DNA of 64,000 nt from Armatimonadota bacterium (GTDB taxonomy: Bacteria; Armatimonadota; UBA5829; DTLH01), in the NCBI GenBank assembly GCA_038207085.1, contig JBBRAE010000007.1, positions 32,001-96,000 on the forward strand, written 5' to 3'. This document shows, piece after piece, positions 22,456 to 52,001 of the stretch (within the stretch, counting starts at the first letter, position 1; every line of letters begins with the position of its first letter). Both the position numbers and the translations under genes were made by a program. The notes below the pieces were generated by a model. It was not told the origin of the DNA and ran no database searches. It saw nothing but the letters and a program-made list of their open reading frames with translations.

Positions 22456-22730
22456 GTGACCGTGCACCTGTTGTCGATACGCCCGTCCGAGTGTTACCTC
22501 ACACCAGAAAGCTCCAGCCAGGACACCTGGCGGCACATGGGCGAACCAGTTTACCGCTGCTTCCTTCCGGACCTGACGGGATTCACTGGCCGGCCATTGC
22601 GCCGGGCCCGACTCTCAACACTCCTGACACAAGTACGCCTCAAGCGAACCGCACCTCGAACAGGAACTCAGCCCCGCTGTAGCGGATTGCGGGTTCAGGG
22701 CACCGCTAGTTCCCCGCCTAGCACGATCAC
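22456..22730 (-). ncRNA. ffs: Large (Bacillus-type) signal recognition particle RNA
   Basis: CGTGCTAGGCGGGGAACTAGCGGTGCCCTG 5' Alu-like part; TCAGGTCCGGAAGGAAGCAGC domain IV; terminal pairing GTGATCGTGC/GCACGGTCAC; upstream of dnaX. Confidence 0.93.
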
Positions 22731-33513: not shown

Positions 33514-36500
33514 ATGACACGCAGGAGCCTTCTGCACTATGCGTCCACATACGTTGTGATGACAGTGCTGGCGGGGTTAACACTTTTCCCCTCCGTAATA
33601 CGTGCAGACACGCCTCCTGATACCGTCTCCGTCAGAGTCCCATTCGAAGACCTCCCCAAGCTTTCAACCGTTCATCCCATCGACAGAATCGACTATGACG
33701 CGTTTTCCGTGCTTCATGTGACCCGGCAAGAGCTTAACAAGCTTAAGTCGCTTAAAGTCCGCACGTCGGAGGAAAACTCAACCGGCGCAATCGGTCTTCC
33801 CAAACGCAAACAGGCTTTGTCGACCAGGGAAATGCCCACAAGAGAGGGGCTGAACATAGTCCAGCTCGCCGGGCCGGTGAAAACCGAATGGATTCGTGAG
33901 ATCGAGCAAACCGGGGCGAAGATCGTCTCCTACGTGCCGGACAACTCGTATCTCCTGTGGCTCAATGCTGCCTCAGTTAGGAATCTCGCCGTAAAACCTT
34001 TCATCAGGTGGCGCGCGCCGTATCTTCCCGCGAACAAAGTCAGCGCGAACCTAACAGGGGCATCGGGCAAGACTACAATCGCTGTAAGCATATATGACGA
34101 TGCCAGCGGCTCAACACTTCACTCGATAACAAAGCTCGGGGCATACCTCGTCGCCGATCCTGACTCACAGATGTACAACGGCATCTCAAGCGCGATCTTC
34201 ATTGTCGATTGCAAGCTGATCGACAAGATCGCCGCTCTTCCCCACGTTCTTTACATCGACCGCACATCAACGGGTGTAGAGCTCGACGATGAGGTCGCGT
34301 GCCAGATCGCCGCTCACAACTACAACACGTCCGGTATCCCTACTGCCAGCCCGAACTACAAAGACTGGTTATCAAGCATTGGTTTTGACGGCACGGGAAC
34401 GACCGTTGCAGTAGTCGACAGCGGCTGCGACACCAATAACACATCGACCATGCATCTCGACCTCCGCAGCCGCGTGCAGAGCGTGGTAAAGTACCTTGGC
34501 ACCGACGACACCGACATTGCCGGGCACGGCACCCACGTGGCGGGAATCATCGCCGGCACCGCGGCAATCGGAACGACGGACTCCTCGGGTTTCCTCTACG
34601 GTCAGGGGGTCGCTCCAGGAAGCAGCCTTGTCATCCAGAACGCATCGGCCACATTTTCGGTTTTTCCGCCGGTTAGCTGGGAAGTCATCACTCGTGATGC
34701 AACCAGACGCGGCGCGGTGATATCCAACAACAGTTGGTCACGCGACAACACCGTAAACTCCGGCTATACCAGCGTTTGCGCCACATTCGACGCCCTTGTG
34801 CGTGACTCAGATAACGGCACGGCGGGTCTACAGCCGCTTGCTATCGTATTTTCGATCGGCAACCAAGGTCCAAACCCTGGCACGGTCGGCGCTCCCAAAG
34901 AGGCCAAGAATATTATCACCGTCGGCGCAAGTGAAAACTACCGCCCGGCGAACCCGCTCGGCAGCTCGTGCAGTGCGTCGAGCAATATCACCGGAGTGGC
35001 TGAACTCAGCAGCCGCGGCCCGTGCCTTGACGGCAGAATTGCTCCAACCGTAGTAGCCCCCGGCACCCAAATCGCTTCAACCGCATCGTCGGTCGCAAAC
35101 TACACGGGGAACTGCCAGGCCTCAATCGACTCAAATTATGCGTGGATGAGCGGCACGTCGATGGCGGCGCCGATGGTCTCCGGAGCGCTTGCTCTTGTGG
35201 ACCAGTGGTGGCGCTCGGAACATAACAATCAGCACCCTAGCCCGGCGCTTTTCAAGGCGATCGTCGTCAACAGCGCCGTCGACCTCGCAGGGGGGCCAAA
35301 CGGACGAGGTGGAACTCTCACCCATATCCCAAACAACGATCAGGGCTGGGGCCGCCTCGACACTTCGAACGCCATCGCCCCACCGAACACTTTCTATGAA
35401 GACCAGACCAACGTTTTTAGCCAGAGCGGACAGATCCGCCGGTACAGGGTGGAGACAGTCGACACCAGCAAACCACTCAAGATCTCTCTTGTCTGGACTG
35501 ACGCCCAGGGGCTCGCTGGTTCCCAGGCGTGGACAAACGATCTAGACCTGGTCGCCACTAAGTCAGGTAATACCTATCTCGGCAACGTCTTCTCAAACGG
35601 CGGGTCGACTACCGGTGGCTCCCGCGACTACAAGAACAACGTCGAATGCATCTACGTCCAGAACCCATCGGGAGTGTACGAAATAAGCGTCGTAGCCGCC
35701 AACATCGCAGGCGACGCGATCCCCGGCAACTCCATTCCACTTGAGCAGGACTACGCGCTGGTCATCCGAAACGGCAGAGTCGGCGGCACGGTCATTGAGC
35801 CCTACACCCCTGTTGTATCGTCCACACCCGCAGCGCCTGACCATTACACGGCGAATCAGCCAAGTGGCTGGTCGGCGGCGGCTCTTCTGCCTGCTCCGGG
35901 AGGTGACAGCAACCTCGCGGTCTATATCGACCCAGGTTTTACATCCTCTCCAGCTACATCAGACGCTCCCGGCCAGGTGCTCGACTTCATCGCCGTCGAC
36001 GGCAACAGGCCGGTCCCATCCATTCTGTATCCTCGCGTAAGCTCGGTTTTCGGCTCATCGGGTTACACTGTTGAGTGGGCCACAAAGACGGGCGATCTAG
36101 TTTCGGGGAGCACGGTGTATCAGAGTTTTGGAGCGTCGAACCTTATCAGAATGTGGGATATCTCGGTTGCGGGGTCAGCGAACTGCGGACTTCGCGTCGA
36201 ACCGATATCCGGCGACCTAGACCTCGGAATCTGCGTTTTCGGATCGACAGCCGGTCAGCCTTCTACGTATTATCGGCTGAAATCCGGCGCACTTGCCAGG
36301 CTCGACCCTGCGGGGCCCTATACCGTCCAGACGTTGCTCTTCCAACTTCCAGCCGCTGGGCGTTACGGAGTTGCAGTGTGGAAAAACGGAGGAAGCGGAG
36401 ACTACAGGGTTCTGTTTGACGACAGCGCGCCGACTTCTCTTGTCGTAACCCCGGCGTCGGCTTTCCCCACGAGCATAACCGAGCTTTCGGCGTCCTGGAG

Positions 36501-49531: not shown

Positions 49532-50359
49532 ATGGATCTAAAAAGCTGGTATAAGCTCAAAACCGGCAATACGACGATCTTAAAGGCGTGGAACCTCGAA
49601 CGCGCGGGCCTCGTTGCCCACTGCTTCAGCACTCGCGTCGGAGGGTCGAGCGAGAGCCCGTTTGACACGATGAACCTCGGACTGCACGTCGGCGACGATC
49701 CCGCCACGGTAGTCGAGAACCGCTGCCGGCTCGTCCAGGCCGCAAAGCTTGACCCTTTGGGTATCACTACTGCAGAGCAGGTGCACGGATGCAGTGTGGC
49801 GATCATCAGCGCTGCCGACGCCGGTCGAGGCGCAGCCGCCTGCGCCGAATCGATCCCCGCCGTCGACGCGCTGATCACAAACGTTCCCGGCCCCGTCCTT
49901 ACACTCTTCTTCGCCGACTGCGTCCCGGTCTACCTGCTCGACCCGGTCCACCGAGCAATCGGGCTCGCTCACGCAGGCTGGAAAGGCACCGCTCTCAAAG
50001 TCGCGGCAGAGACACTTCAAGCGATGACCAATCACTTCGGCACAAGCCCCACGGACTGCCTCGCCGCCATCGGCCCCGCAATAGGCAGGTGCTGCTACGA
50101 CGTTTCCGCAGACGTAGCCATAAGAGTGCGAGAAGCATCCGGTGACGACCGCGTGATCGCCCGGGCCAACCAGGACACCTGGAGGCTCGACCTCAAACTG
50201 GCGAACTGGGCGACGCTTCGGGCATCGGGAATCCCCGAAGAGAATATCGCCGTATCCCACCACTGCACCGCCTGCCACCCCCACGAGTTCTTCAGCTACC
50301 GACGCGACGGCAAAACAGGCAGAATGGCCGCCGTACTCAGCCTCCTGCCTATTCGTTAG
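49532..50359 (+). CDS. pgeF: PgeF/YfiH family protein
   Basis: STRVGG, NLGLHVGD, QVHG, ADCVP, HAGWKG, FFSYRR. Confidence 0.92.
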   Translation: MDLKSWYKLKTGNTTILKAWNLERAGLVAHCFSTRVGGSSESPFDTMNLGLHVGDDPATVVENRCRLVQAAKLDPLGITTAEQVHGCSVAIISAADAGRGAAACAESIPAVDALITNVPGPVLTLFFADCVPVYLLDPVHRAIGLAHAGWKGTALKVAAETLQAMTNHFGTSPTDCLAAIGPAIGRCCYDVSADVAIRVREASGDDRVIARANQDTWRLDLKLANWATLRASGIPEENIAVSHHCTACHPHEFFSYRRDGKTGRMAAVLSLLPIR

Positions 50360-50455
50360 CGTGCCGTGTGTTGGCAAGCGTTTATACGGGTAAGATAACC
50401 TCAGACGAGAGTATGAGAACTCTCTATATGCGACATTCACTGGGAGGTGACAGAA

Positions 50456-50740
50456 GTGAGTATATTAGCTTGGCTTATAGTGGGGCTTATAGCAGGTTTC
50501 CTTGCGCGGCTGGCGTTGCCCGGAAATGAACCTGGGCCTGGTGGGCTCTTAGGAGACCTGATTGCAGGTATAGTTGGTGCACTTGTGGGCGGCTGGATAT
50601 TTAGATCGCTCGGCATCGGCAACGTGACAGGAGTAAACATAGGAAGCATCATCGTTGCCTTCATCGGTGCGGTGATTTTCCTTCTGGTATGGCGAGCCAT
50701 AGCATCAAGAAGCGGAGGCTACGGCGCACGACCAATCTAA
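50456..50740 (+). CDS. GlsB/YeaQ/YmgE family membrane protein
   Basis: WLIVGLIAGFLA, GIVGALVGG, IVAFIGAVI. Confidence 0.9.
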   Translation: MSILAWLIVGLIAGFLARLALPGNEPGPGGLLGDLIAGIVGALVGGWIFRSLGIGNVTGVNIGSIIVAFIGAVIFLLVWRAIASRSGGYGARPI

Positions 50741-50754
50741 CTATTTTAACGATC

Positions 50755-50787
50755 GGTACCGTGGCCGAATATATCGGCCACGGTACC
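50755..50787. repeat. Perfect 14-bp-stem palindrome (terminator- or REP-like)
   Basis: GGTACCGTGGCCGA-ATATA-TCGGCCACGGTACC. Confidence 0.7.
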
Positions 50788-50863
50788 CCCATTTCAAAAC
50801 CAGTATTCACCCCAGCTAATAGAAACCACCTCATGCGGCATAATGATAATGTAAGACACACTA

Positions 50864-50950
50864 CAACGAAAAATGGCAAACCCGCCGAAAGACGGGGACG
50901 CAAAGCCAACGGGCCTACGGGAGATTCCTATGGTTGCCAGGCTGCCGAAA
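50864..50950 (+). ncRNA. c-di-GMP-I (GEMM-I) riboswitch aptamer
   Basis: GGCAAACCCGCC-GAAA-GACGGGGACGCAAAGCC...GGGCCTA...GCCAGGCTGCCGA; G at the position-20 equivalent argues for c-di-GMP rather than 3'3'-cGAMP. Confidence 0.92.
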
Positions 50951-51191
50951 GTAGACACACGCTTCTTCTTCAGGCGTCACCCAGGTGTACACAGGACGGT
51001 TGAAGAAGGCGCGGATCTAGCGGCAGTCTGGCAATTGCTATTTCTGGAGGATTTTCTCAAGATATATGCCCAACCGGGCTCAATAACTTAAGATGCTTTA
51101 CTAACCTCCGCTTCCATTCCCGCTTCCCGCTTCCCAACTCCCGTGGCCTGCAGGGCTTTGAATAGAGGTTCTGTAGGAAATATTCCCATCT

Positions 51192-51222
51192 TGGAGGGCG
51201 CTAGTCGCCCTCCTCTTTTTTT
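51192..51222 (+). terminator. Intrinsic terminator with plus-strand polarity
   Basis: GGAGGGCG-CTAGT-CGCCCTCC-TCTTTTTTT. Confidence 0.85.
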
Positions 51223-51229
51223 GTACCGA

Positions 51230-51721
51230 TTACGGACGCGAAGCGCCAAACGTGCGCACGTACATCACAATCGGCCACCGATGCTCCCGAGGCACCGTCT
51301 GCACCATCACCGGCTCGTGCCCCACCCCATAGAGCATAGAGTAGTAGAGCTGCCCATCGCTCAGCCCCTTTACTGAGTCAGAGGCAAGATTGGAGGGCTT
51401 AGGCACGTAGCTCTCACCGACCGGACCGTTGCCGTCGCCTTTTGAACCGTGGCACATCAGGCAGTAGTAGCCGTAGAATATTCGTCCGTTTTCGAGATTT
51501 TCAGGTGTTTGGGGCAGTGGGTTCGATGCAAGATTCGCCTGTTCGAGCGTAAATGCGACGACTCTACCATTTGTCGGCACCGTGCCGCCGGGCAGGTCGG
51601 GCATCTCCCTCTCATAGGGTTTGATCGACGGCTGGTCGTTCATATGCGGCCCACAGGACGCGCAGAAAAGTCCAACTACACAGCAGAGCGTAATTTTGAC
51701 GATTATTCTAACGTGGAGCAT
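51230..51721 (-). CDS. actE: Monoheme cytochrome c lipoprotein, ActE-like
   Basis: Lipobox-like CASC, MNDQPSIKPYE, PGGTVP, CLMCHG, RWPIVMYVR. Confidence 0.75.
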   Translation of the reverse strand: MLHVRIIVKITLCCVVGLFCASCGPHMNDQPSIKPYEREMPDLPGGTVPTNGRVVAFTLEQANLASNPLPQTPENLENGRIFYGYYCLMCHGSKGDGNGPVGESYVPKPSNLASDSVKGLSDGQLYYSMLYGVGHEPVMVQTVPREHRWPIVMYVRTFGASRP

Positions 51722-52001
51722 TCGCGCCTCCGCCCCTGAGCTTGGGAAGCTCGATCTGATTCGCCGAAACATCGGGGTCGACGGGCTCAATCGTCAGAAT
51801 CGACTGCCCCGGCACAAACGGCACAGTGCCATACTGCCAGTCTCGCCTCGCCTGCCGGTCTCCGATCAGCACGATGATCAGCACTATCCAAAACACCGTA
51901 AACGCGACCGTCAGCGCAGGCGAAAGCCACCCACCCACCCAGGTAGAGGGCCGCGTCAGATCCCGAGCTGTATCGTGGGATTCAGGTGGTCTCATGCTCA
52001 A
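51708..52001 (-). CDS. Small single-TM hypothetical protein in the cco operon
   Basis: One TM helix; overlaps both neighbours; SD present. Confidence 0.6.
   Translation of the reverse strand: MSMRPPESHDTARDLTRPSTWVGGWLSPALTVAFTVFWIVLIIVLIGDRQARRDWQYGTVPFVPGQSILTIEPVDPDVSANQIELPKLRGGGANAPR

Follow-up and report, generated by a model that had tools for sequence, protein, structure and literature searches.

Terminator-type ON riboswitches of class I for c-di-GMP (cyclic diguanosine monophosphate), known as c-di-GMP-I or GEMM-I (RF01051), have a GAAA tetraloop hairpin and a second hairpin in the aptamer, followed by a terminator whose 5′ strand overlaps the aptamer 3′ strand. Our study concerns such an element in a stretch of 64 000 nt from an Armatimonadota bacterium (assembly GCA_038207085.1, contig JBBRAE010000007.1, positions 32 001 to 96 000), which is referred to here as the window and supplies all coordinates given without a contig or locus name. 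The locus shares the full aptamer, both hairpins and the overlapping terminator strand with the described riboswitches, and differs from them in that no coding gene follows, the cargo of related leaders being missing. It is probably an ON-type c-di-GMP-I riboswitch that was orphaned by the loss of a small Sm/WYL-like cargo gene, and thus a leftover rather than a new class of regulatory RNA.

Riboswitch-controlled small or antisense RNAs are established for the S-adenosylmethionine and B12 classes (SreA, EutX/Rli55 and AspocR types), and these have defined targets or protein partners. The window locus is like them in that a riboswitch would decide the elongation of a non-coding transcript, but differs in that no complementarity to a target exceeds chance and the downstream part is poorly conserved. 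The leaders of decaying genes offer a second comparison: here too a regulatory element outlasts a pseudogenised cargo, in a graded series described below, whereas the persistence of two leaders in this genome and of unchanged riboswitch parts in a diverged relative is more than simple decay predicts.

A third comparison is merRNA of Bdellovibrio bacteriovorus, a 445-nt RNA with a c-di-GMP riboswitch and no conserved downstream open reading frame (ORF), which reaches ~2 million reads per kilobase per million (RPKM) in attack phase and which its authors propose to be a store or sponge for c-di-GMP (PMC3627812). Both are c-di-GMP riboswitch RNAs without a downstream ORF. However, merRNA is defined by massive expression and has no known coding ancestor, whereas the window locus has a clear coding orthologue in a relative; what the two share is the aptamer class. 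A preliminary description of this DNA had supposed that a c-di-GMP-gated orphan RNA would be new, a claim that is weakened by merRNA. A literature search found no paper joining an Armatimonad, c-di-GMP and a riboswitch.

Riboswitch aptamer and competing terminator

The leader consists of three elements:

50839-50850, plus strand: promoter-like CATAAT/GATAAT followed by GTAAGAC, a block kept in a paralogous leader on contig C33 and in the leaders of family relatives

50865-50949, plus strand: c-di-GMP-I aptamer (RF01051, 72.9 bits with a gathering score of 35, E 2.2e-12)

50932-51045, plus strand: expression platform, a long terminator hairpin with an interrupted U tract (free energy −54.7, z −5.34)

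A window-wide Rfam scan gave two matches, a signal recognition particle (SRP) RNA and this aptamer, whose match spans model positions 1-87 of 87 and is therefore full length. The GNRA-capped first hairpin, the ACGCAAAGC junction, the second hairpin and the 3′ GCUGCCGAA were all found in the cmscan alignment, which places one C-A mismatch beside the GAAA loop of the first hairpin. Judged by these features, 50865-50949 is a genuine c-di-GMP-I riboswitch aptamer and would be expected to bind its ligand. The preliminary description had reported a canonical aptamer behind a −10-like GATAAT and had proposed an Infernal comparison with the c-di-GMP-I model; both elements lie where it placed them, and the comparison gave the full-length match listed above. 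The block at 50839-50850 is a putative promoter, and from 50837 (query position 88) onwards the window is 87% identical to the C33 leader over promoter and aptamer.

The 3′ strand of the aptamer doubles as the 5′ strand of the terminator hairpin, as 50932-50947 pairs with 51019-51034 and CGGCAGTCTGGCAA (51021-51034) is the reverse complement of TTGCCAGGCTGCCG (50934-50947) with one G-U pair. Folding of 50932-51034 gave −54.7 kcal/mol, compared to −35.6 ± 3.6 for shuffled sequences (z −5.34), and none of the 200 shuffles was as stable. The tail that follows is TTGCTATTTCT (51035-51045). This U tract is interrupted in both ORF-less leaders of the genome, in the window and on C33, with 7 U in 11 positions; relatives have runs of 5-7 U. 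The tract here is thus the weaker one, and its interruption may leave the terminator leaky. The design is common to six related leaders, with 25 predicted pairs of which three have compensatory changes on both sides, and in relatives the competing terminator directly precedes the ribosome-binding site of a small gene.

A ligand that holds the aptamer 3′ strand should permit read-through, and the competing-terminator design therefore suggests an ON switch, as had been proposed earlier; the stability of the hairpin and its conservation in six leaders bear out the terminator itself. Without c-di-GMP, 50932-50947 would pair with 51019-51034 and transcription would stop near 51045. With c-di-GMP, the aptamer would keep the strand and polymerase would continue for ~180 nt to a second terminator at 51193-51222, giving an RNA that would code for nothing.

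A coding gene at the syntenic site

Four features lie behind the first terminator:

51046-51051, plus strand: GGAGGA, directly after the terminator tail, like GAGGAGG in the related genome G002

51066-51086, plus strand: six-codon ORF MPNRAQ (ATG CCC AAC CGG GCT CAA TAA), its ATG 14 nt after GGAGGA

51105-51143, plus strand: C/U-rich tract, CCTCC and then CGCTTCC-type repeats with four TCCC, resembling the start of the C-rich 3′ untranslated region (UTR) behind the small ORF of relatives

51193-51226, plus strand: strong intrinsic terminator and then GTAC, with a stem at 51193-51213 (eight pairs, seven of them G-C), a loop of 5 and the tail TCTTTTTTT to 51222

According to the ORF list, the stretch from the aptamer to the second terminator contains no credible plus-strand ORF, nor does 50950-51229 as a whole; the only plus-strand ORFs of at least 20 aa are 50873-51091, which starts inside the aptamer, and 51143-51376, which crosses the second terminator. 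The second terminator folds at −16.2 kcal/mol (z −4.17), and its T run ends 7 nt before the stop codon (51230-51232) of a convergent ORF at 51230-51790 on the minus strand. The preliminary description is confirmed on these points, namely the lack of a coding cargo, the GGAGGA, the six-codon ORF, the C-rich tract and the strong terminator 7 nt from the convergent stop.

Comparison was made with 40 relatives, of which G002 belongs to the same family but a different genus. When their DNA was searched with 50750-51235, matches were confined to the aptamer and the promoter-proximal part, and outside this genome none in the 40 relatives extended past query position 227 (window 50976). One G002 contig, C95, stops within an aptamer and has a Cu-oxidase_4 gene that shares 65% identity with window 49532-50359. 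Another, C131, starts inside an aptamer. The competing terminator and GAGGAGG come next, then a 64-codon ORF, a brief C-rich stretch and a terminator ending TTTTTTTGTAC; beyond this are a convergent gene for cytochrome c, with 55% identity to the window's ActE-like gene, and cbb3 genes. The window and C131 show collinear local matches in the aptamer, a 16-nt stretch just past the stop codon, the terminator and the cytochrome gene. From ribosome-binding site to stop there are 203 nt in G002, compared to 53 nt in the corresponding interval here (51052-51104).

We favour loss of the cargo, as G002 has at the syntenic position a 64-codon gene that was not found here. The preliminary description had named a protein gene at this place in relatives as evidence against its regulatory RNA, and deletion of the regulated gene as the alternative; the 64-aa ORF of G002 argues against that RNA and fits the deletion.

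The elements that remain agree in kind with those of G002. The second terminator is homologous to the one behind the G002 small ORF (51206-51226 against L028 450-470, 86%), and 51118-51133 gives a weak local match to L028 379-394. In G002:C131, G003:C38 and G005:C21, where the ORF is intact or freshly broken, the stop codon is immediately followed by a similar C-rich tract. By its position, GGAGGA may be the ribosome-binding site of the lost small ORF, a suggestion of positional homology. The ancestral unit would have consisted of a promoter, the aptamer, the competing terminator, a Shine-Dalgarno site, the 64-codon gene, a C-rich 3′ UTR and an intrinsic terminator, placed tail to tail with the last gene of a cluster for an alternative complex III (ACIII) and a cbb3 oxidase. 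In this lineage the stretch that held the ORF would have shrunk until no protein trace was detectable, and read-through would now add a former ribosome-binding site, junk and a former 3′ UTR to the RNA.

The terminal hairpins of the small-ORF units are often followed by (T)TGTAC, as at window 51223-51226. GTAC stands within 14 nt of the hairpin in 20 of 32 loci, compared to a median of 10 over all 4-mers, and is thus weakly discriminating; the top-scoring 4-mers near these hairpins all tile TTGTAC. Across this genome, GTAC was found at only two of 41 terminator-like hairpins.

The cargo protein family

The cargo is a 64-aa protein, and frames of 64-65 aa are intact in the 30 loci that were fetched, most of them behind a GGAGG-type site. 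A profile search found the family in 32 of the 40 relatives, mostly with two copies per genome. Of these 30 loci, 19 have a same-strand RF01051 aptamer upstream, 18 among the first 20 and one among the last 10, three of which end at a contig edge. The consensus is MxIPEAKQYLGRNC.VT..DRHG....FVP.YGAYL.GDIEDI.LDRVT.I (for example L028:184-375 and L029:184-375, both on the plus strand, and L039-L068). An AlphaFold (AF2) model gave a five-to-six-stranded barrel (predicted local distance difference test 95.3), and the cargo is accordingly predicted to be a small beta-barrel protein of Sm/Hfq/WYL-like type. Six of the small proteins were compared with Pfam and NCBIfam, and neither gave a match even with E allowed up to 1; public copies are annotated as hypothetical, one of them from an Armatimonadota bacterium. 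In this phylum, which is little studied, the family is a candidate for an output of c-di-GMP signalling.

In the genome under study, the best tblastn hit to any of six members had an E of 0.14, and none of the 30 candidates scored in the profile search matched. One weak tblastn hit, close to where contig C29 starts, was discarded, as it lies antisense within a pilin-like gene.

Independent contigs and a diverged relative

A 472-nt contig from another assembler, built from a DNA run that is possibly the source sample, covers 50895-51366 with 0 differences and no gap. The ORF-less order, at least as far as the C-rich tract, was also seen in a relative of ~90% identity, in a 187-nt contig that spans 50926-51109 and differs from the window at 15 letters, with 3 gap letters besides; a second contig of this relative covers 50759-50921. 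The relative is known from these two short contigs, out of two RNA-library runs of one other study, and from such contigs neither the strand nor the ends of a transcript can be told, nor whether DNA was absent.

An assembly error does not account for the ORF-less state. A collapse of the ORF out of the contig, or a binning fault, might be suspected in that the leaders are repeated sequence, which breaks contigs in G002 and G004, and in that this genome is in 83 contigs. However, the contig without differences and the same order at ~90% identity in a separate study leave an ORF that exists in the organism but not in the assembly scarcely credible.

The listed differences of the ~90% relative cluster in the spacer upstream of the promoter, in the apical part of the terminator hairpin (four of six at unpaired positions) and at 51060-51068, the most variable stretch; six of the 15 could not be placed, and differences within ~30 nt of contig ends are seemingly unlisted. 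Within the variable stretch, 51067 is C instead of T, which turns the ATG into ACG, and CC is inserted after 51068. These changes bear on the idea that the regulated product is the six-codon ORF or another unconventional small ORF. A GGAGGA with an ATG 14 nt on would suit that idea, but the spacer is long, start codon and frame are not kept in the relative, and no other plus-strand ORF of at least 20 aa lies wholly within 51046-51192. With the ATG lost and two nucleotides inserted we dismiss the mini-ORF, which is not conserved and probably meaningless, and a hidden coding function is extremely unlikely.

The relative's contig ends at 51109, before most of the C-rich tract. Both RNA runs leave 51136-51450 uncovered and one of them, X3, also leaves 50758-50865 uncovered, although uncovered does not equate to silent. 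Run X3, an ice metatranscriptome, also contains short contigs with the aptamer core from other organisms over 50870-50908, at high depth (586 in one). This suggests abundant riboswitch-leader RNAs in that ice community.

A second orphan leader and graded decay of the cargo

The genome (G000) has seven c-di-GMP-I aptamers, one of which forms a second orphan leader on contig C33:

C33:19566-19650, minus strand: second orphan c-di-GMP-I aptamer (locus L002, 75.5 bits)

C33:19296-19400, minus strand: retained remnant of a 3′ element (covariance model R1, 50.4 bits, as a row of the training set)

The C33 leader has the same competing terminator and no small ORF, and the next genes are convergent. 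Its counterpart in G002, on contig C22, has a 64-aa ORF and then a non-coding 3′ element. This element comprises a perfect Shine-Dalgarno-like AGGAGGTG with no start codon that could be used, between one and three motifs like ACAACTGAATA and a G+C-rich hairpin of the GGCCCGGCC type, and often a CCTCC able to pair with GGAGG; examples are L040:1790-1905, L042:1755-1872 and L034:2030-2171, all on the plus strand. The model R1 was built from the 3′ element in this analysis, with the C33 copy included in training. It matches once per genome in 17 of 41 genomes and, besides this genome, directly behind a small-ORF copy in 16 of 16. An Rfam scan of the 3′-element loci at gathering thresholds found the aptamer only.

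R1 gave no match at 51046-51230, and its only match in the window is at 35895-36018 (8 bits, E 0.8). A GGAGG...CCTCC hairpin at 51046-51109 had been considered as a copy of the conserved 3′ element and was ruled out by the absent R1 match.

Further stages of cargo loss were found in other relatives. One ORF copy in G005 is split after ~17 codons by a ~170-nt insertion, the remainder having a TAG, and its aptamer still scores 76 bits; in G003, the sister species of G005, the gene is intact. In G001 the profile search found no small-ORF copy, and no leader match went past the generic aptamer core. A single family thus shows graded decay of the cargo, from intact (G002 and G003) through disrupted (G005) and ORF gone with the leader kept (the window and C33) to both gone (G001). 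With such a series one could study for what length of time a riboswitch outlives its gene.

The G005 insertion is a repeat with inverted ends (GAGTTTCAGG ... CCTGAAACTC, then GATTTTCGGC) that breaks contigs; a further copy in G005 lies between the terminator and the ribosome-binding site of a second unit. It looks like a miniature mobile element:

L030:1780-1903 with L075 (the ends of G005:C31 and G005:C21), and L009:1690-1830: ~170-nt repeat

Leftover or retained RNA

Several observations weigh against simple loss of the cargo. At this divergence the exact deletion junctions could not be placed in global MAFFT alignments (window against G002:C131, and C33 against G002:C22). Contigs C95 and C131 are linked by inference, since C22 also starts in an aptamer, and synteny rests on one relative. 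With the assembly in 83 contigs, a copy of the small gene may sit in a gap. Both deletions, in the window and on C33, took the ORF and spared the flanking non-coding elements, C33 keeping the order-wide 3′ element, and both ORF-less leaders score like leaders with cargo (72.9 and 75.5 compared to 74-76 bits). In the ~90% relative no difference is listed in 50836-50891 (promoter and 5′ part of the aptamer), in 50956-50990 or in 51019-51039 (terminator stems). This suggests a riboswitch that may still be under selection without its cargo, unlike a pure leftover.

The alternative is an exapted, riboswitch-gated non-coding RNA that was kept after ORF loss and acts by the RNA itself, either because the C/U-rich former 3′ UTR, with four UCCC between hairpins, acts in trans on G-rich ribosome-binding sites or because the aptamer buffers c-di-GMP, as proposed for merRNA, its precedent (PMC3627812). 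We consider this unlikely, although two intact ORF-less leaders in one genome speak for it, as do the sparing of the conserved 3′ element by the C33 deletion and the ORF-less state of a relative diverged by ~10%, in which promoter, aptamer half and terminator stems have no listed changes while the flanks vary. The relative's 187-nt contig also spans the first terminator (50926-51109), in the run without cover at 50758-50865 and 51136-51450. However, RNA-library contigs are uninformative on strand, ends and DNA, and in the second RNA run the putative promoter region is covered as well. As ancestral 3′ UTR, the C-rich tract is likewise present where the ORF is intact, and the stretch just past the terminator is the most variable in the relative. 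Folding of 51046-51190 revealed no unusual structure (z −1.45); this interval has no R1 match and no other copy in the genome, and its longest antisense matches are 14 nt (E 1.4).

On account of this z value and of the variation in the ~90% relative, including the lost ATG, the remnant looks non-functional, and we infer that it has no function of its own. A fuller form of the alternative, in which two mRNAs of a small Sm-like protein each became a retained c-di-GMP-gated non-coding RNA, or a c-di-GMP buffer, through loss of the ORF only, is a little less likely again. The riboswitch would then switch only the former 3′ UTR, that is, the UCCC-rich tract here and the order-wide 3′ element on C33. 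If true, this would exemplify in nature how a coding transcript can give rise to a regulatory RNA under riboswitch control. The apparently unchanged riboswitch parts in the ORF-less, ~10% diverged relative make a retained role at the RNA level testable. More promising leads than the window locus are offered by the cargo family and by the C33 copy of the 3′ element.

Neighbouring genes and the respiratory cluster

The locus is flanked by the following features:

50447-50740, plus strand: transglycosylase-associated membrane protein of GlsB/YeaQ/YmgE type, 97 aa (Pfam PF04226, E 1.9e-13)

50755-50787, strand not assigned: perfect 14-bp palindromic hairpin with loop ATATA, read from the sequence

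51230-51790, minus strand: monohaem cytochrome c lipoprotein (ActE-like), convergent (PF13442, E 3.3e-4, below cut-off)

The gene at 50447-50740, for which NCBIfam PRK10457 scored 72 bits (below cut-off), is outside the riboswitch unit. The palindromic hairpin has no T run and is absent from the terminator scan list; it is probably the terminator of this upstream gene. The ActE-like gene is the last of a cluster with a cbb3-type oxidase and ACIII-like subunits, the latter being a QrcB/QrcC-like fusion and a membrane protein of the NrfD/DsrP-like type, and all scores in the cluster are below curated cut-offs.

The preliminary description had proposed an RNA aimed at the ACIII/cbb3 operon, with transcripts that may overlap. 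In the specific form of this model, the read-through RNA induced by c-di-GMP would overlap the convergent ActE/cbb3 transcript or collide with it, and so tune respiration. The layout invites this model, as the units stand tail to tail with 7 nt between the plus-strand T run and the actE stop, G002 has the same layout, and no T run was seen on the minus strand after the second-terminator hairpin, in agreement with the earlier observation that the minus-strand operon has no U-tailed terminator here. However, the plus-strand unit stops at a strong terminator before actE, and a coding gene fills this position in G002, so that the tail-to-tail layout was inherited and not designed. A riboswitch beside the respiratory cluster was seen only in this genome and in G002. 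A metagenome scan with the ActE-like protein found only four loci, at 41-60% identity, and no closer relative; at these four and at the ActE-like locus of G004 there is neither riboswitch nor small ORF, two of the metagenome loci having less than 250 nt of flank. G003 and G005, in turn, have riboswitch units without an ActE match to this query. An RNA purpose-built against the ACIII/cbb3 operon is therefore not upheld, given also that no antisense match exceeds 14 nt, and the collision model is very unlikely. An orphan riboswitch beside an attractive operon can be the leader of a lost gene, and it is the locus in relatives that settles the question.

Other RNA elements

Two further sites in the genome, C50:329-897 (minus strand) and C27:37701-37956 (plus strand), hold tandem pairs of c-di-GMP-I aptamers 330-350 nt from contig ends, with the cargo unassembled. 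Behind the seventh aptamer, at C2:65774-65867, come an ORF of 118 aa and a ParA/MinD-like gene. The SRP RNA of the window is of the large bacterial type and was matched at full length on the minus strand at 22460-22726 (187 bits).

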